From Candidatus Saccharimonadota bacterium (lineage in GTDB: Bacteria > Patescibacteriota > Saccharimonadia > Saccharimonadales > UBA4665): 32,000 nucleotides of DNA. The DNA is taken from contig CP065016.1 of assembly GCA_016700375.1 (NCBI GenBank), positions 780,001 to 812,000 on the forward strand, given 5' to 3'. Every line of letters begins with the position of its first letter. Positions within the stretch are counted from its first letter, which is position 1. Under the pieces are notes generated by a model. That model saw nothing but the letters and a program-made list of their open reading frames with translations, did not search any database and was not told where the DNA came from. Made by a program: the position numbers and the translations under genes. Of this stretch, positions 13,732-32,000 are shown in pieces.

Positions 13732-14574
13732 ATGTCTCGTTCAAAATGTTCTCGTGAGCTGTACTGCTCATTCCTGGAGGTCACCTCCTCACGGTATTCT
13801 GCGCTCAGCTTGAGCGAAGTAGCCCCAGACAATGCCATGCTCTCTCACGACAGCGTCTCCCGTTGGCTAGCATCTGAAAAGATACAGCCCAAAGACCTGT
13901 GGCAAGCTGCCGCTTAAGGAAGTTCGCGCCACTCCTGGCATTTTGGTCTTCGATGATGTCGTCATCGACAAAAGCCGAAGCGGCAAGATGGAGCTTGTGA
14001 ACTGGCAGCATGCGGGAAGTAAGCATGACATCACCAGAGGGATTGGCGTTGTAAATGCGTTGTGGCAAGTAGATACAGAACACTACATTCCTATGGACTA
14101 CCGCATCTGGAACCCGCCAGAAGACGGCAAGACTAAGAATGATCACTTCCAGGATATGCTGAGTAGCACAAGACAGAGAGGGCTACGCCCGGAGATGGTT
14201 GTTGCGGATAGCTGGTACGGCTCTCTAAAAAACCTTAAGGCAGTTCGCTCTCATGGCTGGGACTGGGTCATGGGGCTGAGGAGCAACCGGTTAGTCGGTA
14301 AGCCACATATCCAGCTCAGAGAGTTAGATATACCAGATACAGGCTTGGTGACATATCTGAAAGGCTATGGGTGGATCAGAGTCTTCCGGTTTGAGGCCAG
14401 TAACGGCCGCACGGATTATGTTGGTACAAGTCGTACTGACCTCACCCGCGAACAAGTCAAGAAATACTTCGAGCGCCGTTGGAGTGTCGAGGTACTGCAT
14501 CGAGAGCTCAAACAAACCTGTGGCTTATCCCGCTGTCAGGCCAATCTTAGCCGAGCCCAAAGAAACCACATTGG
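13732..14574 (+). pseudogene. IS701/IS4-superfamily DDE transposase, frameshifted and 3'-truncated
   Basis: VFDDVVIDKS, VVADSWYGS and YFERRWSVEVLHRELK (a Y-2-R-3-E-6-K-like signature). The frame changes near 13900 (stop at 13915-13917). The ORF is cut after ..QRNHIG by the IS starting at 14575. Confidence 0.75.
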
Positions 14575-15650
14575 GAGTTATAGGCAAAAACGTGTTGGTT
14601 TTCTCCCCTCGCTTCGTGTATAAAGGTACCAATTAACAAGCACTCGTTGGTGCTCACGAGACATGCCTCTATGGTACTTTAGTTTGGTTCGGATTTGGCT
14701 GTTCATGCCACCCTCAACATGGTTTGTGGTGCTTGGCAGTTCTGCGTGTGGTCGGTAGCTTGAACGAAGCGCATCATCTGTGACTTTATCGAGCTGACGG
14801 TAGGCACTACGGAGTCGTTCGTGGGTGTACCGCCAGCTCCTTTCTCTTGGTTTTGGGTAAGGTTTTACGGTTCGTTCGTTGACATAGTTTTGGTGCCGCT
14901 TGTACCAACGTCTTAGTCTTTGTTTCCAGTGCCTGGCATGTTTTCGTGTCCTAACATGGAGCAAATCTTTGGTGAGTACGAGCAGCTCTTTTCCTGCAAT
15001 TGACTCAGGATGCAGTGTCAGTTTTGTTTTTACATTAAGCCAGATATGGAATCGACAGCGCTGGACGATCGTACCAGGCCAACAGAGGGGAAGAGCCTTC
15101 AGGAGGCCTTTCTGGCCGTCACAAACAACGTAGGTAGGTGCAGGCAGTGAGGCGAGGAACGTGGCCCAGTATGTACTACTTTCGTATGGTACCCACATCC
15201 AGGCAATAACAAACATAGTCGTTCGGGCAATGAGGCAGACGTGGCCGCTAACACGGATGCCATCAACGATGACACAGTGATGACATTCACCCCTCAGCAC
15301 ACTCGGCACGGGCACGCCCCAGCACCAGGCAGTCTGGTCACGAAACGTTCGGCTAGCCGCAGCTAAGTCGTCCTGAGAATCCTTGCCGAGCAACCAAGAC
15401 ATGAATCCCTCAAACACAAACACTCGCCGTAAGTCTGGTCGTGGCTTTGTGGCTGTGAGGCTACACACAGGACACCTCCATCGCTGCTTCCCAGCACCTG
15501 TCTTGCCCCATTTCTGGAGCTTAGTTTTACACACACGACAATAGCGAAAACCTCTCTGTTTCATAGGTAAGTAATGTCTACCGACATTACTTATGAGTCA
15601 ATAACAGAGGTAAAAGTGGTGAAACACCAACACGAGGGTGCCTATAACTC
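14575..15650 (-). mobile_element. IS element copy 1 (1076 bp), no target-site duplication
   Basis: Co-linear with 22534..23609 (offset 7959) and, as far as I can read, identical to it. The terminal IRs are GAGTTATAGGCA(N4)CGTGTTGGT. The flanks cacattgg and cgtgtttg do not match. Confidence 0.9.
14578..15564 (-). CDS. DDE transposase with N-terminal CxxC..CxxC zinc ribbon and MULE/IS256-like core
   Basis: 328 aa with YCRVCKTKLQKWGKTGAGKQRWRCPVC, VIVDG, VVCDGQKGL...QRCRFH and TNHVEGGMNSQIR. The family assignment (IS256-like versus IS1-like) is uncertain. Confidence 0.88.
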   Translation of the reverse strand: MKQRGFRYCRVCKTKLQKWGKTGAGKQRWRCPVCSLTATKPRPDLRRVFVFEGFMSWLLGKDSQDDLAAASRTFRDQTAWCWGVPVPSVLRGECHHCVIVDGIRVSGHVCLIARTTMFVIAWMWVPYESSTYWATFLASLPAPTYVVCDGQKGLLKALPLCWPGTIVQRCRFHIWLNVKTKLTLHPESIAGKELLVLTKDLLHVRTRKHARHWKQRLRRWYKRHQNYVNERTVKPYPKPRERSWRYTHERLRSAYRQLDKVTDDALRSSYRPHAELPSTTNHVEGGMNSQIRTKLKYHRGMSREHQRVLVNWYLYTRSEGRKPTRFCL

Positions 15651-22533: not shown

Positions 22534-23609
22534 GAGTTATAGGCAAAAACGTGTTGGTTTTCTCCCCTCGCTTCGTGTATAAAGGTACCAATTAACAAGC
22601 ACTCGTTGGTGCTCACGAGACATGCCTCTATGGTACTTTAGTTTGGTTCGGATTTGGCTGTTCATGCCACCCTCAACATGGTTTGTGGTGCTTGGCAGTT
22701 CTGCGTGTGGTCGGTAGCTTGAACGAAGCGCATCATCTGTGACTTTATCGAGCTGACGGTAGGCACTACGGAGTCGTTCGTGGGTGTACCGCCAGCTCCT
22801 TTCTCTTGGTTTTGGGTAAGGTTTTACGGTTCGTTCGTTGACATAGTTTTGGTGCCGCTTGTACCAACGTCTTAGTCTTTGTTTCCAGTGCCTGGCATGT
22901 TTTCGTGTCCTAACATGGAGCAAATCTTTGGTGAGTACGAGCAGCTCTTTTCCTGCAATTGACTCAGGATGCAGTGTCAGTTTTGTTTTTACATTAAGCC
23001 AGATATGGAATCGACAGCGCTGGACGATCGTACCAGGCCAACAGAGGGGAAGAGCCTTCAGGAGGCCTTTCTGGCCGTCACAAACAACGTAGGTAGGTGC
23101 AGGCAGTGAGGCGAGGAACGTGGCCCAGTATGTACTACTTTCGTATGGTACCCACATCCAGGCAATAACAAACATAGTCGTTCGGGCAATGAGGCAGACG
23201 TGGCCGCTAACACGGATGCCATCAACGATGACACAGTGATGACATTCACCCCTCAGCACACTCGGCACGGGCACGCCCCAGCACCAGGCAGTCTGGTCAC
23301 GAAACGTTCGGCTAGCCGCAGCTAAGTCGTCCTGAGAATCCTTGCCGAGCAACCAAGACATGAATCCCTCAAACACAAACACTCGCCGTAAGTCTGGTCG
23401 TGGCTTTGTGGCTGTGAGGCTACACACAGGACACCTCCATCGCTGCTTCCCAGCACCTGTCTTGCCCCATTTCTGGAGCTTAGTTTTACACACACGACAA
23501 TAGCGAAAACCTCTCTGTTTCATAGGTAAGTAATGTCTACCGACATTACTTATGAGTCAATAACAGAGGTAAAAGTGGTGAAACACCAACACGAGGGTGC
23601 CTATAACTC
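22534..23609 (-). mobile_element. IS element copy 2 (1076 bp) with 8-bp target-site duplication ATTATTCC
   Basis: Same sequence as 14575..15650. ATTATTCC is found at 22526-22533 and at 23610-23617. Confidence 0.92.
22537..23523 (-). CDS. DDE transposase (identical to the 14578..15564 product)
   Basis: The 328-aa translations in the track are identical. Confidence 0.88.
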   Translation of the reverse strand: MKQRGFRYCRVCKTKLQKWGKTGAGKQRWRCPVCSLTATKPRPDLRRVFVFEGFMSWLLGKDSQDDLAAASRTFRDQTAWCWGVPVPSVLRGECHHCVIVDGIRVSGHVCLIARTTMFVIAWMWVPYESSTYWATFLASLPAPTYVVCDGQKGLLKALPLCWPGTIVQRCRFHIWLNVKTKLTLHPESIAGKELLVLTKDLLHVRTRKHARHWKQRLRRWYKRHQNYVNERTVKPYPKPRERSWRYTHERLRSAYRQLDKVTDDALRSSYRPHAELPSTTNHVEGGMNSQIRTKLKYHRGMSREHQRVLVNWYLYTRSEGRKPTRFCL

Positions 23610-25551: not shown

Positions 25552-25641
25552 GGAGAGATGTCCGAGCGGTTGAAGGAGCTTGTCTTGAAAACAAGTGTGC
25601 CGGCAACGGTACCGTGGGTTCGAATCCCACTCTCTCCGCCA
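25552..25641 (+). tRNA. tRNA-Ser (anticodon UGA), CCA encoded
   Basis: 90-nt cloverleaf with anticodon stem CTTGT/ACAAG, loop CTTGAAA and a long variable arm. Confidence 0.92.
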
Positions 25642-25712
25642 TACAAACTGTGTATGCCCCGAAGGGGTATATGGAATTTGTATGCTGAGTGAGCGGGTGC
25701 ACGAGCCTTCCT

Positions 25713-25822
25713 AGGTTCGGCGGACGAGGAACGCAGCTACAAACGTGCTTGCATGTTTATAGCGAGTACCACAGGGAGGAGGGCGAGCTGGAAGCTCGCC
25801 CGATATCCCTCGCTCTCCGCCA
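25713..25822 (+). repeat. tRNA-Ser-3'-end-like structured module, copy A
   Basis: It begins AGGTTCG and ends ATCCCTCGCTCTCCGCCAA. It is 105/109 identical to copy B. Confidence 0.8.
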
Positions 25823-25953
25823 AGTTAACAAATGCCACGCCGTCTGATAAAATAACGGCAAGCATTCCCGCAGAAAGGGAAAAGAGCAGCCCGACAAAAT
25901 GGTTCACATTTTGTCGGCGCGATGAGAAAAACCGCAGGTTTGTCTCATGCCCC

Positions 25954-26046
25954 GGAGAGGTACCCAAGTGGCTGAAGGGGACGGTTTGCTAAATCGTTAG
26001 AGGGGCGAGAGTCCCTGCGAGGGTTCGAATCCCTCTCTCTCCGCCA
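25954..26046 (+). tRNA. tRNA-Ser (anticodon GCU), CCA encoded
   Basis: 93-nt cloverleaf with anticodon loop TTGCTAA and a long variable arm. Confidence 0.92.
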
Positions 26047-26053
26047 AGTAAAT

Positions 26054-26084
26054 AGAGTCTGCTCGAAAGGGTAGGCTCTTTTTA
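26054..26084 (+). terminator. Terminator hairpin after tRNA-Ser(GCU)
   Basis: AGAGTCTGC..GTAGGCTCT followed by ttttt. Confidence 0.7.
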
Positions 26085-26116
26085 CTTGGCCTGAGATGGG
26101 GTGAGAACACTCGCCC

Positions 26117-26228
26117 GAGGGTTCGGCGGACGAGGAACGCAGCTATAAACGTGCTTGCATGTTTATAGCGAGTACCGCAGAGAGGAGGGCGAGCTGGAAG
26201 CTCGCCCGATATCCCTCTCTCTCCGCCA
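26117..26228 (+). repeat. tRNA-Ser-3'-end-like structured module, copy B
   Basis: It begins GAGGGTTCG and ends ATCCCTCTCTCTCCGCCA, which is identical over 18 nt to the 3' end of tRNA-Ser(GCU). Confidence 0.8.
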
Positions 26229-26235
26229 AAGAAAT

Positions 26236-26270
26236 AGAGTCTGGCTGAAAAAGCTAGGCTCTCTTTCTTT
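26236..26270 (+). terminator. Diverged second copy of the tRNA-Ser(GCU) terminator hairpin
   Basis: AGAGTCTGGC-tgaaaaa-GCTAGGCTCT followed by ctttcttt. Compare 26054-26084. Confidence 0.5.
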
Positions 26271-26322
26271 GATATAGGGATTGATTCGAACGCGAGCGCC
26301 AGTGGCGCTCAGCCGCACAGGG

Positions 26323-27000
26323 TCACTGACCGGCTTGGCAAAATACCATTGCATCTACTCTTCGGGCGCCGGCTTTTTTCAGTATACGGGCAGCTGTTTC
26401 AAGAGTAGCGCCAGTGGTCAAAACATCGTCAACGAGAATAATGTGCTTGCCGGCTACCTCTTTTGGCAGCCTAACACGAAACGCACCTCGCAAATGCTCT
26501 AGTCGCTCTTTTCTGCCGGCACCAACCTGATGTGCTTGGCCTAGGCGGGCAAGGGAATGACTGCATGACGTGCCAGCTAATGCGCTTAATGCTTCCGCTA
26601 GCCCTACCGCCTGGTCATAACCCCGCTGCCGAACCCGGCCGGTCGCCGTTGGGACGGGCACAAACAGGGCCCCTGACGGAACAAACTGCAGGAGTGGTAC
26701 CATAAGCTCCGCCATTTCAGCTACGCCGCTATGGGCACGCTCGTATTTTGCGTGATGCAAGAGCTCTTTGGGAAGATCATCATAGTGCGTCAGCACCAAA
26801 ACACGTCGCAGGGGAGTATGGCGCCGACATGACACGCAGACGTCGGAGTCTCTCGTCACGGCGTGGCAACGGTAACATCGAGACGGTACGTAGGCCAGCG
26901 CTGCCCGGCAAGAAAGGCAGAGTAGCCGATTTTCTTCAACCGCGCAACCTAGGCATACGTGAGGGGCATAGACCCCAATTAATTTTTCTAACAGTAGCAT
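26323..27000 (-). CDS. comF: ComF-family protein (zinc-finger plus phosphoribosyltransferase domain)
   Basis: CLGC..CLSC..CYRC..CVSC cysteine pairs and the PRTase motif HIILVDDVLTTGATL. ATG 27000 is preferred over the track start at 27114. Confidence 0.8.
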   Translation of the reverse strand: MLLLEKLIGVYAPHVCLGCAVEENRLLCLSCRAALAYVPSRCYRCHAVTRDSDVCVSCRRHTPLRRVLVLTHYDDLPKELLHHAKYERAHSGVAEMAELMVPLLQFVPSGALFVPVPTATGRVRQRGYDQAVGLAEALSALAGTSCSHSLARLGQAHQVGAGRKERLEHLRGAFRVRLPKEVAGKHIILVDDVLTTGATLETAARILKKAGARRVDAMVFCQAGQ

Positions 27001-27141
27001 GTTGTCATTATTCCGTTGTAAATAAGTGCGCCCGTCTTGCACGCTGTTAATCGCCTCAGTTATACTGTTTTTAACACAAACACGCAAGACGCTATCTATT
27101 TTGTAATCCGGCAAGCACGCCGGTGGAGGGTAATAACTACT

Positions 27142-27630
27142 ATGGCACGACGCAATCGTGATGACGATTTGTTACTGGAAGAAGATGAATTGACTGCAGC
27201 CTTTTTGGGCGATGAGGCCATGCCCCAGGCAGCCGTGCAGTCTGACGATGATGTTCCCATGGACGATGGCGGCGCCGATGAGTGGAACGACGAAGAAGCC
27301 GTTCTGCCTGGCCAGCTTGCTGTAGACGTGTACGAAACCAAGGAGAAGCTTGTTGTTAAGGCGCGCACCGCTGGGGTAAATAAGGGCGACCTGGACGTCA
27401 GCATTGCAGACAACACACTAAGCATTCGCGGTACACTTAGCGCCGGCAACGAAGACCAGGTGGAAAACTACTTCGTACAGGAATGCTACTGGGGTGAATT
27501 CAGCCGCAGCATCGCTCTGCCAGTACCCGTAAAAGAAGAAGACATTGAGGCCGCTCTAAAAGACGGCGTACTCACCGTGAGCTTCACCAAGGTAAAACAG
27601 GACACCGTAAAGAAAATTCAGGTCGTTTAA
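27142..27630 (+). CDS. Hsp20/alpha-crystallin family small heat-shock protein
   Basis: The alpha-crystallin domain spans LAVDVYETKEKLVVKARTAGVNKGDLDVSIADNTLSIRG...GEFSRSIALP...DGVLTVSF. GGAGGG lies upstream of ATG 27142. Confidence 0.88.
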   Translation: MARRNRDDDLLLEEDELTAAFLGDEAMPQAAVQSDDDVPMDDGGADEWNDEEAVLPGQLAVDVYETKEKLVVKARTAGVNKGDLDVSIADNTLSIRGTLSAGNEDQVENYFVQECYWGEFSRSIALPVPVKEEDIEAALKDGVLTVSFTKVKQDTVKKIQVV

Positions 27631-27664
27631 CTCGACCATACTTTGAATTGGTTTTTGGTCAAAA

Positions 27665-27699
27665 CATAAAAAATGCTCGGGAAGCCCGAGCATTTTTTA
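27665..27699. terminator. Bidirectional rho-independent terminator
   Basis: aaaaaATGCTCGGGaagCCCGAGCATttttt. Confidence 0.85.
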
Positions 27700-27718
27700 T
27701 TACTTAATAAATCTAACC

Positions 27719-28679
27719 TGTTAGAAAACCTCGCGTTGTTTAACTTTTCCAGCTTCCTTCATAGGCCGCTCGTACTGGTAAAAGTACTCACATAGTCGCT
27801 CGAGCGGCGTCGCCTTGTCAATGCCTTTGTGTGGGCGTACACAGTTGTAGTAATTCACAAACCTGGTAAGGGCTTTGGCTCGCTCCTCACGACTGTTAAA
27901 TACCTCGGCGTTATGCCAGCTCTCCATTAGTGTTCGGATGGCTCGTTCGGCTTTGCCATTCGTCTGCGGACACTTCACTTTGGTGAACTTCTGGGTGATG
28001 CCAGCCTCGCCACAGGCTTTCATGAAAGCATGTTCACCGTAACGGCCTTTGTACTCGGTGCCATTGTCGGTTAAGATTCGTTCAATACCATAGGGGCATT
28101 GAGCCAGTACAGTACTGAGGAAATCCGCGCTACTGAACATGCTCTTGTCGGGGTAGATACCAACGTACAGCTCTCTTGAGTAGTCATCAATAGCCACAAA
28201 CAGATATTCATGGCCGTCCAGCTTCGTTTCGCCCGTAAGTAGTGGTAGACGTTTAGTATCCATATGCAACATCTCGCCTGGATAGTCTTTCTCGTAACGT
28301 TTGGCAGTCCGGGCTAGTTTATCTTGGATTGATCGCTCAATTTTGCCCAGCCGCTTTAAGCCGTACTCCAGGCATTGGTAGCGTTTGTTAGTACTGACGT
28401 GCAGGCTGTAGTCATCCCGCCGAGCCCGAGTGAGGATCTTTTGTATAGTGGGGTAGGACACCCCATATTTGGCAATGAGATCTTTCTTACGTAAGTTGAG
28501 GACAAAATAATCCTCTGCCAATGCTTTACGTTGAAACGGCATGAGCCGTGTTCGTTTATGTACTACCATAGTGGTAGCCTCCTCTCGTTGGGTTAGTTAG
28601 TTGGTTGTACTCTAACTTTTACCATGGAGGAGGCTACTTTGGTTGTCTAGAAAGTTAAATAACGCTCGGGGATTTTACA
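27719..28679 (-). mobile_element. IS481-family insertion sequence (961 bp) with 7-bp TSD TCTAACC
   Basis: The ends are TGT...ACA. The imperfect ~29-bp IRs share GCGTT(G/A)TTTAACTTT. TCTAACC is found at 27712-27718 and 28680-28686. Confidence 0.85.
27721..28569 (-). CDS. IS481-family DDE (rve-type integrase core) transposase
   Basis: 282 aa with an N-terminal HTH, then HMDTK, AIDDYSR, LTDNGTEY and PQTNGKAER. Confidence 0.9.
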   Translation of the reverse strand: MVVHKRTRLMPFQRKALAEDYFVLNLRKKDLIAKYGVSYPTIQKILTRARRDDYSLHVSTNKRYQCLEYGLKRLGKIERSIQDKLARTAKRYEKDYPGEMLHMDTKRLPLLTGETKLDGHEYLFVAIDDYSRELYVGIYPDKSMFSSADFLSTVLAQCPYGIERILTDNGTEYKGRYGEHAFMKACGEAGITQKFTKVKCPQTNGKAERAIRTLMESWHNAEVFNSREERAKALTRFVNYYNCVRPHKGIDKATPLERLCEYFYQYERPMKEAGKVKQREVF

Positions 28680-28680
28680 T

Positions 28681-29130
28681 CTAACCTGATGTTCCTAGGT
28701 TACTTGCCTTTGAAAGCACAAATCGGACAATGAATTGCGCCAGAGCAACTATAACAAGACCAATAAGTGCGTAGATGATGGTATTTTTTGCGGTGGTAAT
28801 CTTGCCGCTATCGCCGCCAGAGGTAATGTAGCGGAGACCACCCCAAATAATCATAATGACCGCGAGGAAGCCCACGACTATTGAAAATATATTTACAATG
28901 AGCTTGATGACGTTTGTAATATCAGTATTTCCTGTGCCGGCATCATTTGACGTTGAGAGACAGTCTTCGCCTATTGCTCCGTTGATGTCTACACCTTGAC
29001 CAACACACTCACCTATATCCACTGCGTATACAGCGACCGGCGCTACCAACGGTGCTGCGACAAGTAAGGCACCCGCAAGAAAGCTGGCGATTTTAATGCG
29101 TATTTTACTAATCATCTTGAAGCCTTTCAT
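28681..29130 (-). CDS. TrbC/VirB2-like (T4SS-type) pilin paralog 1
   Basis: A signal-like N-terminus (..APVAVYA/VD), a variable region with a Cys pair, then two TM helices flanking LRYITSGGDSGKITTAKN. Confidence 0.75.
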   Translation of the reverse strand: MKGFKMISKIRIKIASFLAGALLVAAPLVAPVAVYAVDIGECVGQGVDINGAIGEDCLSTSNDAGTGNTDITNVIKLIVNIFSIVVGFLAVIMIIWGGLRYITSGGDSGKITTAKNTIIYALIGLVIVALAQFIVRFVLSKASNLGTSG

Positions 29131-29178
29131 TTATTGCTTTACTTATGTTTATACCACTTGTGGTAGATACTTTCAATC

Positions 29179-29646
29179 TTAATTTTTATTGACACACGTG
29201 CCTTCTGCACTAACTACCTGGCCAGTTGGACATTTCATAGTAGATTTGGTTGTTTGTCCGAGTACAAACCTGACAATAACTTGTGACAGCGCGACAATTA
29301 TAATGCCTACTATTGCATAGATGAGCGCGTTTTTGGCGCTAGCAATTTTGCTACTGTCACCGCCAGAAGAAATATATTTTATGCCAGATATAATTATCAT
29401 TATTACAGCTACTATACCTGCCACTATACCAAGTAAACGAACAACTGACTTTATAACAGAGTCGACCTTCGTGCCCCCTTGGTCATCTGTTTCGGCACAG
29501 GCATTGCCGCTCCCAATCGAATCACAAACAGCCTGCTGATTCGGAGTAAGTGCCTGCGCATTGACAAGATGCCCAAATAGCATAAAGCTCATGACCCCTA
29601 GCGCCATCAAAACCCCTAAGCCCCTTCGTAAAATATTCTTTTTCAT
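29179..29646 (-). CDS. TrbC/VirB2-like pilin paralog 2 (with Cys-containing C-terminal extension)
   Basis: Signal-like N-terminus (..VNAQA/LT), core IKYISSGGDSSKIASAKN and tail KCPTGQVVSAEGTCVNKN. Confidence 0.75.
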   Translation of the reverse strand: MKKNILRRGLGVLMALGVMSFMLFGHLVNAQALTPNQQAVCDSIGSGNACAETDDQGGTKVDSVIKSVVRLLGIVAGIVAVIMIIISGIKYISSGGDSSKIASAKNALIYAIVGIIIVALSQVIVRFVLGQTTKSTMKCPTGQVVSAEGTCVNKN

Positions 29647-29650
29647 ACTT

Positions 29651-30058
29651 TTATAACCTCTTTACTACAAATGTGATTATGGTTTGTGCTAAAACAATAA
29701 TAACTAGGCCCGCGATAGCCCCAACCATGGTATTCTTAGCCGAACTAACCTTTTGACTGTCTCCGCCAGATGTCATGTAGCGTATGCCACTCGCAATCAT
29801 GACTATGACAGCCGCTACGCCCGCAATAACAGCAACGATTAAAGACACCTTATATAAGGTACCTGAGGTGCCCGTGAGCGGATTTTGCGCAGCGTCTGCG
29901 TTATCACTCTTACATGTTTCTGATTCGGGCGCAAATGTGCAAGCATCGCTAATTATGCTTTTCGCACCTACAGTATGAGGGATGGCAACAACCATCCCTA
30001 CGCATCCCGCTACAAGCGCGCCAAACATCGCAAATCGAAGAAACCGTTGCTTTATCAC
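29651..30058 (-). CDS. TrbC/VirB2-like pilin paralog 3
   Basis: Signal-like N-terminus and core IRYMTSGGDSQKVSSAKN. It lies 4 nt from paralog 2. Confidence 0.75.
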   Translation of the reverse strand: MIKQRFLRFAMFGALVAGCVGMVVAIPHTVGAKSIISDACTFAPESETCKSDNADAAQNPLTGTSGTLYKVSLIVAVIAGVAAVIVMIASGIRYMTSGGDSQKVSSAKNTMVGAIAGLVIIVLAQTIITFVVKRL

Positions 30059-30354
30059 CCCAGCCCCCTTACCACGAGGGTAACTATAGAATAACCGGAG
30101 AGCGCAATCGCAAGACCGATAACTGCATAAAGTATGCCTTTTTTTGCTTGTGCCATCTTTGCGGGATCACCAGAGGCCAATATATAGCGAAGTCCGCTAA
30201 TAACGATGATGAGTAGCGCGACCGATCCAGATATGCCAAATACGATACGGAGTATTTCGGGAATAGATTCTTTCGCAATATCTCCTGTAGCACCACTGTT
30301 TGGAAGGGGCGAATAATTTATATCTGCAGCAAGATGATAAAACAATTTCATCAT
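30055..30354 (-). CDS. TrbC/VirB2-like pilin paralog 4 (core only, no obvious signal peptide)
   Basis: 99 aa with core LRYILASGDPAKMAQAKK. It has 4-bp overlaps with both neighbours. Confidence 0.7.
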   Translation of the reverse strand: MMKLFYHLAADINYSPLPNSGATGDIAKESIPEILRIVFGISGSVALLIIVISGLRYILASGDPAKMAQAKKGILYAVIGLAIALSGYSIVTLVVRGLG

Positions 30355-31178
30355 TTCGAAAGCCTCCCCCCTACATAGGACACGACCGCTGCTGCCACTA
30401 TAGCTATTACGAGCCCGACGAGCGCATTAATAATACTCTCACGACCTCTTTTTGTTTTCTCTGGCTCCCCCTGGCTCGTTGTAAGCAATATACCTCCAGC
30501 TATAACAAACCCTACCGCAACGAGCCCGGCGATCCGTACTAGTGTGTCTGCAAGCGCTAACACTACGGGGAGCAAGTGACTTTTCGTTCCTGCATCATCA
30601 CCCAACAGCTTAAAGTTTGTGACATCACACGTTTTTCCACCTCCGGGACCATCTGCAAACGCTTCAGCCGGGAGATAGGCGAACCAGGGCTTAAGCCCAA
30701 GGAACGGTTTTGAACAACGAGAAGCAAGCGACCCCGTGCCGGCTGCAGGAGTAGATGTCTTATTAAGCGCACCCGGTGACATAAACTGTATGCCCGCAAA
30801 CAGGAACATGAATACCACGAGGCTTAATAATGCTTTAGATATCTTAGATTTTGCGGCTGCGGCTTTTTGAGGGTCTCCTGCAGATGCCGAATACTGTATC
30901 CCCCCCATAATAACCCCAGCAATAATAGCCACCCCAGCAACCATGCTGAACATTTTTATGGTTGGATTAACATACTTAGCAACAAAACAATCCTGCGTGT
31001 CTGAACTATGCCCGATTGGACAACACGTTCTCTGATGTCCCGCAAGGTTTGTTTGACCGGTTGGACATATTGCCGCGTCTCCTTCTGAGGCATATACCTT
31101 CCCTGATAGCGGCATAAGTGCAGCAATCCCGAATGCCAGACCAGCTGCTAGGATAATTAATTTTGTACGGATATTCAT
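30351..31178 (-). CDS. Tandem double pilin-like protein (two pilin modules in one ORF)
   Basis: Signal-like N-terminus, a Cys-rich region (ICPTG..TCCPIG..DCF), module 1 GGIQYSASAGDPQKAAAAKS and module 2 GGILLTTSQGEPEKTKRGRE, each flanked by hydrophobic helices. Confidence 0.75.
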   Translation of the reverse strand: MNIRTKLIILAAGLAFGIAALMPLSGKVYASEGDAAICPTGQTNLAGHQRTCCPIGHSSDTQDCFVAKYVNPTIKMFSMVAGVAIIAGVIMGGIQYSASAGDPQKAAAAKSKISKALLSLVVFMFLFAGIQFMSPGALNKTSTPAAGTGSLASRCSKPFLGLKPWFAYLPAEAFADGPGGGKTCDVTNFKLLGDDAGTKSHLLPVVLALADTLVRIAGLVAVGFVIAGGILLTTSQGEPEKTKRGRESIINALVGLVIAIVAAAVVSYVGGRLSK

Positions 31179-31522
31179 GCTTATGCACCACTATATAATG
31201 CGCGACAATATCCATCAAGACGTAACGCTATATGTGGCCAGCCAAAACATGCGGTTAGCCACCGACAATTTACAACGAACATACCCGATTAATCTAGAGG
31301 CGCCTTTCGCAAATCTGGTTTTTTCTGTGGTAGGTTTAATCTGTGGTGAACTATGCCCGCCAAACGCTAGTATGATGTATAACTTATCCCGAGACGCCGC
31401 TGGAAGAAATTTTTATATATTTTTTCAATAAATCTATTCTCTGAAGCGTTCGTGTAATTGTTTTGTACTCTTACTATGACGCTCTCGGTAAGTACCAACA
31501 ATCGCGGGGGGTAAGCGCAGTC

Positions 31523-31551
31523 TTGTGAATACCTCCGAGCTAACGTATTAT
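31523..31551 (+). promoter_or_regulatory. TTGTGA-17-TATTAT promoter, 7 nt before the ATG at 31559
   Basis: tcTTGTGAatacctccgagctaacgTATTATttatagcATG. Confidence 0.5.
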
Positions 31552-31558
31552 TTATAGC

Positions 31559-32000
31559 ATGAGCAAAAAGAAGCGCACAGCGTCGCTTTTGGGGTTACTA
31601 CTGGTAGTATGTGCTTTTGTGCTATTGCCTACCGTACGGACTTACGCAGCTGTAAGCCCATCTTCTTACCCCGAGGATAAGGCCAAGGCGTTTTATTATG
31701 GATCCTGGTTAATTAACTGTTTTAGCAACGGCAAATACAGTATTGATATGAGTGGCGATGCCAGCGTTAATGCAATGAATGTCGGGCCAGGTGACAGCTT
31801 TGTGACGGGCCTAACGGGAGCCGATCCCAGAAAGTGTAATGATAAATCATTTGCTCTTGATGCTATCCGCCACCTAAATATACCCTGGGCTACGCCACAA
31901 GATACTTTAAACTTCTTGTGTGATATCGGAGCCAAACGGGTGAACGACGGCGAATGTAAATCACTAAGAAACGACTCACAGCTTGGACTCGACGCAAATG
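31559..32000 (+). CDS. Secreted protein of unknown function, 3' end beyond window (not in ORF track)
   Basis: My hand translation gives MSKKKRTASLLGLLLVVCAFVLLPTVRTYA/AVSPSSYPEDKAKAFYYGSWLINCFSNGKYS..., open to the window edge. It has a signal-peptide-like N-terminus and several Cys residues. Confidence 0.6.
   Translation, partial: MSKKKRTASLLGLLLVVCAFVLLPTVRTYAAVSPSSYPEDKAKAFYYGSWLINCFSNGKYSIDMSGDASVNAMNVGPGDSFVTGLTGADPRKCNDKSFALDAIRHLNIPWATPQDTLNFLCDIGAKRVNDGECKSLRNDSQLGLDAN

Follow-up and report, generated by a model that had tools for sequence, protein, structure and literature searches.

What does a saccharibacterial cell build from a tandem array of small, mutually diverged membrane proteins, and can the copies stand in for one another? 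The question is raised by a locus at the end of a 32,000-nucleotide (nt) stretch of Candidatus Saccharimonadota bacterium (contig CP065016.1, positions 780,001 to 812,000; hereafter the window). An earlier note on this stretch had described five co-oriented genes with gaps of −4, −4, 4 and 48 nt, encoding six pilin-like modules. Calls of open reading frames (ORFs) confirmed the five genes, here termed P1 to P5 in reading order, and their gaps on the minus strand (31178–28681), the P2 start and the P1 stop sharing a 4-nt overlap (ATGA). The count of six modules was confirmed as well, as P1 contains two modules joined by a linker of about 60 amino acids (aa). The five genes very probably encode six VirB2-like pilin modules of a chromosomal, monoderm-type (MPF-FATA-like) type IV secretion system (T4SS), and are positional orthologs of the essential genes SEML1_0014–0019 of Candidatus Southlakia epibionticum ML1. 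Their products most likely act as non-redundant subunits of a host-contacting tube or pilus that the T4SS builds.

Profile searches revealed that all five proteins belong to the Pfam family PF18895 (T4SS_pilin), with scores of 58.4 bits for P1 (in two stretches), 48.1 for P2, 40.4 for P3, 49.0 for P4 and 56.6 for P5. Given a gathering threshold of 26.6 bits, each protein passes by 14–32 bits, which puts the assignment to the pilin family far beyond chance; PF18895 is also the T4SS pilin family to which the earlier note alluded. Against the TrbC/VirB2 family PF04956 (threshold 27.9 bits), P4 scored 29.8 bits, above the cutoff, and P5 (27.7), P3 (24.6) and P2 (21.2) fell below it; P1 gave no PF04956 match in the Pfam scan. 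Most of the 3836 homologs of P5 carry a precomputed match to PF04956. For the NCBIfam model NF045849 (cutoff 40 bits), P1 passed marginally at 40.5 bits, and P2 (30.8), P3 (35.0), P4 (29.5) and P5 (32.1) stayed below; judged by these scores, the array proteins appear to be relatives of the NF045849 proteins and not equivalogs. P1 has 72 near-full-length homologs of 243–349 aa, all from Saccharibacteria or Saccharimonadales where the source is named. Recent duplication of the paralogs was considered and rejected, as they are about 30%–54% identical and their orthologs keep their positions.

Hydropathy analysis, together with AlphaFold2 (AF2) models of P1 and P5, showed a PF18895-type hairpin of about 70 aa, in which a pair of hydrophobic helices surrounds a short polar loop of the RY(I/M)(T/S)SGGDSxKxxxAK type. 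By hydropathy, P3, P4 and P5 have a signal-like N-terminus followed by two hydrophobic segments, P1 has a signal followed by four, and P2 has two segments without a signal. The AF2 model of P1, built from an ortholog alignment (predicted local distance difference test score, pLDDT, 79.5), places helices at residues 61–98/103–133 and 202–234/239–274 and small beta elements in both ectodomains; that of P5, likewise from orthologs (pLDDT 69.8), shows one hairpin at 62–98/106–142. The two-helix hairpin topology proposed earlier is thus borne out. The loop motif [RQK]Y..[SA][GA]GD[SP].K occurs in module 1 of P1 (QYSASAGDPQK), P3 (RYMTSGGDSQK), P4 (KYISSGGDSSK) and P5 (RYITSGGDSGK), and the corresponding loop of P2 reads RYILASGDPAK. 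Module 2 of P1 departs from the motif (TTSQGEPEKTKRGR), the loop of its hairpin being TSQGEPEKTKRGR.

The regions outside the hairpins follow a regular pattern of their own. Four genes had been thought to encode signal-peptide-like N-termini, and indeed P1, P3, P4 and P5 bear Sec-type leaders with AXA-like sites, the predicted cleavages being VYA↓SEGD in P1, VGA↓KS in P3, VNA↓QA in P4 and VYA↓VD in P5. A reading of the proteins as type IV pilus pilins or pseudopilins was rejected, because the class III leader cleaved by the prepilin peptidase PilD, which ends in G before F/M-T-L-I/L-E, is absent from all five N-termini (no G↓FTLxE); the five proteins also matched no type IV pilus family in the Pfam scan. 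The number of cysteines after the leader is always even, with 4+2 in P1, two in P3, 2+2 in P4, two in P5 and none in P2, so that the paired cysteines noted between signal and core hold for P1, P3, P4 and P5. In the ectodomains they are spaced as C-x8-C in P3 and P4 and as C-x14-C in P5, and the second pair of P4 sits in a C-terminal tail. Two details of the earlier note were accurate here, its bare-core paralog being P2, without signal or cysteine, and its paralog with a Cys-pair tail being P4. P1 runs from a signal peptide through a 4-Cys ectodomain and hairpin 1 to a conserved 2-Cys inter-module linker (CSKPFLGLKPWFAYLP...C.V.NF) and hairpin 2.

Which machine these proteins serve became apparent from the far side of the array. 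An exact-sequence look-up of P1 matched no contig, and the Logan metagenome contig L085 was reached via P0082, a 144-aa form of P5. L085 is 99.7% identical at the nucleotide level to window positions 28676–32000 and extends beyond the window end. The divergent ORF that is cut at the window end is identical over 147 of 147 aa to the N-terminus of a 1093-aa ORF of L085 (216–3497), which carries a precomputed PF19590 TrbL_3 hit. This VirB6-like gene lies on the opposite strand 380 nt upstream of P1, with the same spacing as in the window; at the N-terminus of its product, a signal or anchor segment precedes a Cys-rich extracellular domain. The earlier note had found no VirB4, VirD4 or VirB6 gene in the window; a VirB6-like gene does start inside it, at 31559 on the plus strand, and the suspicion that this divergent ORF begins the rest of the locus was right. 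A T4SS gene thus adjoins the array, contrary to the refuting condition named in the earlier note, and in relatives PrgI, TraC-like, VirB4 and M23 peptidase genes come immediately after it. The VirB6-like fragment of the window is 63% identical to a fragment of L001 located just upstream of a fragment that bears TrbL_3. When the 147-aa fragment was compared by BLASTP with the VirB6-like proteins of L002 and L004, nothing significant emerged; only L001 and L085 were matched, since the extracellular N-terminal domain is too divergent. Separately, this domain of several hundred Cys-rich residues gives no BLAST match even where P1 is 62%–79% identical, and the transmembrane (TM) core of the protein aligns in one tested pairing (the L001 fragment versus L002).

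Scanning GTDB species representatives with the P1 alignment yielded 80 Saccharibacteria loci, in which ORFs were called and searched with a pilin-core hidden Markov model (HMM) as well as marker proteins taken from L004 and the window. Wherever the upstream flank reached 9 kb or more, VirB6-like, PrgI, TraC-like and VirB4 genes were all present (43 of 43 loci), and the VirB6-like gene was found in 60 of the 60 loci with at least 3.5 kb upstream. On the other side, a convergent Hsp20 gene was found in 57 of 60 and ComF in 48 of 60 loci with enough downstream flank, and the window shares this layout, from ComF and Hsp20 through P5 to P1 and the VirB6-like gene. In L004 and L002 (P1 identity 79% and 62%, respectively), the operon contains VirB6-like, PrgI, TraC-like, VirB4 and M23 peptidase genes; the VirB4 of L004 matches P-loop_TraG at 97 bits and its neighbour PrgI at 39.8 bits. 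In L001/L005 (CP064992.1, 430855–451679), a metagenome-assembled chromosome labelled as complete, the VirB4, PrgI and VirB6-like genes are split into several fragments; the genes are intact in L002, L004 and L006, and the splits are likely assembly frameshift errors rather than signs of pseudogenes.

The same arrangement is known from a studied relative. The T4SS cluster of S. epibionticum comprises SEML1_0006–0019 (Wang 2023, Cell, PMC10633639). Within it, SEML1_0014–0019 are six PF18895 genes, each scored GD/ES/ES by transposon sequencing (Tn-seq), that diverge from the VirB6-like SEML1_0013 and are followed by Hsp20 (0020) and ComFC (0021) (PMC10633639). The window matches this layout, with the same six tandem PF18895 modules, a divergent VirB6-like gene and a convergent Hsp20 and then ComFC. 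In both organisms, modules 2 and 3 overlap by 4 nt (P1/P2 here), a short spacer precedes the last pilin, and the third module is a bare core of about 100 aa. The two differ in that modules 1 and 2 form one 275-aa polypeptide in the window but two genes of 132 and 185 aa in ML1, and in that the window has an insertion sequence (IS) at the P5 stop codon. On the far side of the VirB6-like gene, SEML1_0012 of ML1 is non-essential.

Comparison of the arrays revealed an ordered set of subunits. Exactly six pilin modules were found in 71 of the 81 arrays examined, window included. Such multiplicity, which the earlier note took to be unusual, is therefore the norm in Saccharibacteria, and it had already been published. 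Among the six-module arrays, 47 species have six separate genes, a fusion of modules 1 and 2 occurs in 21 species and the window, and modules 2 and 3 are fused in three species, as continuous ORFs of 218–268 aa (L035, 10352–11008; L053, 10170–10976; L075, 10308–10988). The latter is a second, independent kind of pilin–pilin fusion, and the two kinds together imply that the joined modules function 1:1. Since both ends of a hairpin are predicted to face outward, fusions of this type would keep the membrane topology. The module order is fixed across 71 species. For modules 1–6, the best cross-species match occupies the equivalent place in the array in 98%, 99.7%, 87.5%, 56%, 49% and 92% of comparisons, respectively, which indicates that the array is ancient and ordered; modules 4–6 form a closer subfamily.

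Within the modules, the pre-core regions have a mean pairwise identity of 23%–35%, versus 43%–65% for the cores, and the core of module 6 (P5) is the best conserved of the six, with 64.5% mean cross-species identity. Exactly two ectodomain cysteines are found in modules 2, 4, 5 and 6 in 57–70 of 71 species (module 4, 66 of 71). Module 1 mostly has four to six, 63 of 71 orthologs of module 3 have none, and 13 of 71 orthologs of module 5 carry a C-terminal Cys-pair tail. In an alignment of 44 P1 sequences, the invariant residues include C52, C64, C155, C184, P164, W165 and Y168. The best-conserved stretch of P1 is its inter-module ectodomain, C-S-K-x-F-L-G-L-K-P-W-F-A-Y-L-P...C-x-I-x-N-F; in species with split genes, this stretch forms the N-terminus of the module-2 gene. 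The ectodomains had been called hypervariable; their sequences do differ between paralogs and between species, but the term is overstated given the conserved cysteine frameworks.

These comparisons and the published essentiality allow a putative model to be proposed. P1, P3, P4 and P5 would enter the cytoplasmic membrane via Sec and lose an AXA-type signal peptide, and P2 would insert without one. Each module would then adopt an N-out/C-out helical hairpin, with the basic Ser/Gly-rich loop facing the cytoplasm and the N-terminal extension pointing outward, probably braced by a disulfide. The divergently encoded VirB4/PrgI(VirB3)/VirB6 machine may extract the modules from the membrane and build from them a tube or pilus that crosses the envelope and makes contact with the actinobacterial host. 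The six modules would not be interchangeable, modules 1–3 (P1 and P2) forming a minor, tip or base complex of fixed stoichiometry and module 6 (P5) probably being the major shaft subunit. We propose P5 for the latter role because it has the best-conserved core and is the sole array gene behind a real intergenic spacer, as seen in the window, L001, L002, L004 and ML1.

A candidate for the finished structure has been imaged. Cryo-electron tomography (cryoET) of the saccharibacterium M. amalyticus showed a barbed-tip tube or "lance", 8.6–9.0 nm wide and 61–70 nm long, that extends from the inner membrane in the direction of the host; the study assigned no gene set to it (PMC11880426). This lance may possibly be the physical counterpart of the pilin structure. 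Conjugative pili are of similar width. A speculative extension, which we regard as possible though rather doubtful, is that the six modules build a barbed-tip lance about 9 nm wide and 60–70 nm long, with modules 1–3 as a tip or initiation complex of fixed stoichiometry in the role of the Gram-negative VirB5, P5 as the shaft, and a P5 allele that spreads between diverged strains by recombination. Modules 1–3 are suggested for the tip on account of their strict orthology, their pairwise fusions in several lineages and their having the richest cysteine frameworks.

Three other explanations have to be weighed against non-redundant pilin subunits. The paralogs might be alternative versions of one surface pilin, swapped or mixed to vary the exposed surface for host-range adaptation or evasion, as proposed for the VirB2 paralogs of Bartonella and Anaplasma. 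The faster divergence of ectodomains than of cores would suit such a scheme, as would the suggestion that the versatility of the arrays may aid adaptation to host strains (PMC12102498), and the strains do form a mosaic: relative to L086, protein identity is 100% for P5, 72% for P4, 60% for P3, 60% for P2 and 49% for P1, and the nucleotide breakpoint is abrupt. However, order and identity are kept in 71 species, with modules 1, 2, 3 and 6 position-specific in 87.5%–99.7% of comparisons. Furthermore, S. epibionticum requires every one of its six pilin genes, so the pilins do not stand in for each other; 25 lineages have neighbouring modules fused, which would be intolerable for alternative variants; and the array genes are flanked by no silent cassettes, invertible promoters or repeats. 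We therefore consider exchangeable variants very unlikely. The earlier note had left heteromeric and exchangeable filaments side by side; positional orthology and fusions favour heteromeric, non-redundant subunits and disfavour exchangeable ones, and the fixed order, individual essentiality and tolerated fusions together favour a heteromeric structure of defined composition.

A defined composition might instead belong to a structure that is no filament at all, the proteins serving the T4SS translocon as integral-membrane or wall-spanning parts, for instance as a collar embedded in lipid or a short stalk that surrounds VirB6, and being pilins by ancestry only. Gram-positive T4SSs generally lack pili, no pilus has so far been shown for any Patescibacterial T4SS, and a fusion-implied fixed stoichiometry with six conserved subunits fits a defined complex over an open-ended polymer. 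Nevertheless, the sequence kinship with genuine pilus-forming TrbC/VirB2 proteins, the signal peptides and disulfide-type ectodomains suggestive of surface exposure, and the tube of about 60–70 nm and pilus-like calibre seen by cryoET in a saccharibacterium (PMC11880426) make this explanation unlikely, and it overlaps the tube or pilus proposed here if the "pilus" is short. It is extremely improbable that the array encodes small two-helix membrane proteins of unrelated origin (holin-like or ATP-synthase-c-like proteins, or fragments of transporters) that stand beside the T4SS by chance. Helical hairpins do carry little information; sub-threshold Pfam matches point to DUF898, a cytochrome bd subunit, holins and others, and some homologs bear JGI names such as "hydrogenase Eha subunit B" or "cytochrome bd subunit 2". 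Yet the five PF18895 matches are independent, in S. epibionticum the array and the T4SS genes are co-essential, and the HMM scores, together with the invariant VirB4/VirB6/PrgI synteny, effectively refute an unrelated origin.

Several points weigh against the reading of the array as pilin subunits of a T4SS-built tube or pilus. No filament of these proteins has been seen in any Patescibacterium, and a review calls the pilus an "intriguing possibility" (PMC12857230). Foldseek of the P1 and P5 models against the Protein Data Bank (PDB) gave no significant match, P1 yielding only generic helical proteins (E>0.5) and P5 zero matches, and an HMM profile of P5 orthologs found only chance matches among PDB sequences (Tse5, cytochrome bd subunit). 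Our own hmmscan did not recover the precomputed TrbL_3 hit: the VirB6-like proteins of L085, L004 and L002 and the isolated TM region matched neither TrbL_3 nor VirB6. The VirB6-like identity therefore rests on precomputed hits, operon position and the Foldseek annotation published for SEML1_0013. No VirB4 was seen in the window strain, since the near-identical contig L085 ends inside the operon. In addition, Tn-seq essentiality of short, tightly packed genes may partly reflect polar effects, modules 4–6 are weakly position-specific, and the major and minor pilin roles are ones that we infer.

The array belongs to an already described kind of system, and the comparative details given here are modest additions to it. 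The multiplicity of pilins in Saccharibacteria has been published (PMC10633639, PMC12102498; reviewed in PMC12857230). A survey reported 441 VirB2 arrays of 2–11 genes in 383 candidate phyla radiation (CPR) assemblies, abundant in Saccharibacteria and including a "Sec secreted array" of N. lyticus TM7x, with about 25% mean within-array identity, and suggested that they might aid adaptation to different host strains (Quinonero-Coronel 2025, Microb Genom, PMC12102498). The array of the window shares with these the divergent tandem VirB2-like genes near virB4 and the lack of a relaxase or coupling protein in the cluster; where the survey counts arrays, the present analysis adds positional orthogroups, pilin–pilin fusions and cysteine frameworks. 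A text search of PMC12102498 found no mention of pilin fusions, of cysteine or disulfide features or of pilin signal peptides. The fixed six-module order, the fusions, the even cysteine frameworks and a 100%-identical last pilin across diverged flanks were not found in PMC12102498 or in the main text of PMC10633639.

The array can also be compared with more distant systems. With TrbC/VirB2/TraA (PF04956) of Gram-negative T4SSs it shares a cleaved leader, a two-helix hairpin with a short polar basic loop, and genes for VirB4, VirB3 and VirB6 at the locus (VirB4 and PrgI here from related loci), the similarity lying at or near the Pfam threshold. Unlike those systems, it belongs to a monoderm without an outer-membrane core complex, and in place of one major pilin plus VirB5 it comprises six distinct subunits, with cysteines in the N-terminal ectodomains and one tandem double pilin. 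Mbov_0395/MMCAP2_0565 of Mycoplasma integrative and conjugative elements (NF045849) are likewise small two-helix pilin-like proteins of wall-less or monoderm MPF-FATA-type transfer, but they are single genes on conjugating mobile elements, whereas the six-module array is chromosomal with no relaxase nearby. The VirB2 arrays of Bartonella and Anaplasma phagocytophilum also consist of tandem divergent VirB2 genes in one T4SS locus; their copies are interpreted as antigenic or host-cell variants (cited in PMC12102498), whereas those described here are ancient, position-specific and, by Tn-seq in ML1, individually essential.

The features of the locus are listed below.

Coordinates of the pilin array and adjoining features in the window
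Feature	Position	Strand	Description
P1	31178–30351	-	275 aa, fused double pilin, modules 1+2
P2	30354–30055	-	99 aa, bare-core pilin, module 3
P3	30058–29651	-	135 aa, GTG start, module 4
P4	29646–29179	-	155 aa, module 5
P5	29130–28681	-	149 aa, module 6
Divergent intergenic region between P1 and VirB6-like gene	31179–31558	.	380 nt
VirB6-like gene	31559–32000	+	first 147 codons, cut at window end
ComF-like	26323–27114	-	
Hsp20	ends 27630	+	

The start of P5 is more likely the ATG at 29115 (144 aa), as judged from the gene call of the 100%-identical P0082 and an AAAGG about 8 nt upstream, in which case the P4–P5 gap is 63 nt. The divergent intergenic region is presumed to be the control region for both operons. 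It contains promoter-like hexamers at 31218–31190 (minus strand) and 31523–31551 (plus strand), which are candidates only, because the promoter and terminator scan overall did not rise above shuffled controls; an Rfam search of 26000–32000 found nothing. Some close relatives carry an extra gene of 325–380 aa between P1 and the VirB6-like gene (L001, 8842–9819; L002, 8645–9787; L004, 8787–9812), which encodes a Pro/Ala/Ser-rich N-terminus followed by a TM segment and matches no Pfam family. The window and L085 lack this gene and have the spacer only, in which tblastn detected no remnant. The remaining window holds housekeeping genes (Mur ligase, TsaD, ValRS, CarAB, ComF-like and Hsp20) and insertion sequences.

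Two strain-level observations concern the P5 end of the array. A segment of about 600 nt (about 28560–29160), which spans the P4–P5 spacer and P5 and reaches about 120 nt further downstream, shows 100% identity in L086, L087 and L089, which come from other samples, and the nucleotide identity of its flanks drops abruptly to 78%–95%; in L086 the VirB6-like N-terminus is unrelated. This pattern could reflect recombination of a P5 allele or chimeric metagenome assembly at shared k-mers. Directly after the P5 stop codon lies a 955-bp IS (27721–28675) encoding one 282-aa rve transposase (27721–28569, minus strand), with imperfect terminal inverted repeats and flanked by a direct duplication of about 10 bp, ATCTAACCTG, that contains the P5 stop codon. 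Its site is empty in L085; the element is also absent from L086, L087, L089 and L090 and is present in L088. The insertion is thus a strain-level polymorphism that leaves P5 intact but parts it from the convergent Hsp20.

Elsewhere in the window, two 100% identical direct copies of a 1076-bp element (14575–15650 and 22534–23609), 7.96 kb apart, each encode a 328-aa Mutator/IS256-like transposase, with carB, carA, an amine oxidase gene and two tRNA genes enclosed between them. A DDE_Tnp_1 transposase is located at 13943–14623; counting the rve element, the four IS copies within 32 kb are a high load for a reduced Saccharibacteria genome. Between a PDDEXK gene and ComF (25552–26316), two tRNA-Ser genes (tga, 25552–25641; gct, 25954–26046) lie within a diverged repeat with a period of about 400 nt and copies 80%–96% identical, the copy structure of which appears different in L087.

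In summary, the window itself adds no new kind of system, and the comparison narrows the possibilities for what the Patescibacterial T4SS builds. The fixed order, the fusions and the even cysteine frameworks argue for a defined heteromeric structure and against interchangeable surface variants. To our knowledge, no T4SS other than the Patescibacterial one is known to be essential for its bearer, and among monoderm T4SSs it alone has VirB2-like pilins. The model makes predictions testable by genetics in S. epibionticum and N. lyticus, namely the identity of the shaft pilin, the role of modules 1–3 as a tip and the need for disulfides in the ectodomains. If the lance is indeed built from these modules, it would represent the first T4SS pilus of a monoderm that is heteromeric and of defined length, and a physical feeding or injection conduit of CPR epibionts.

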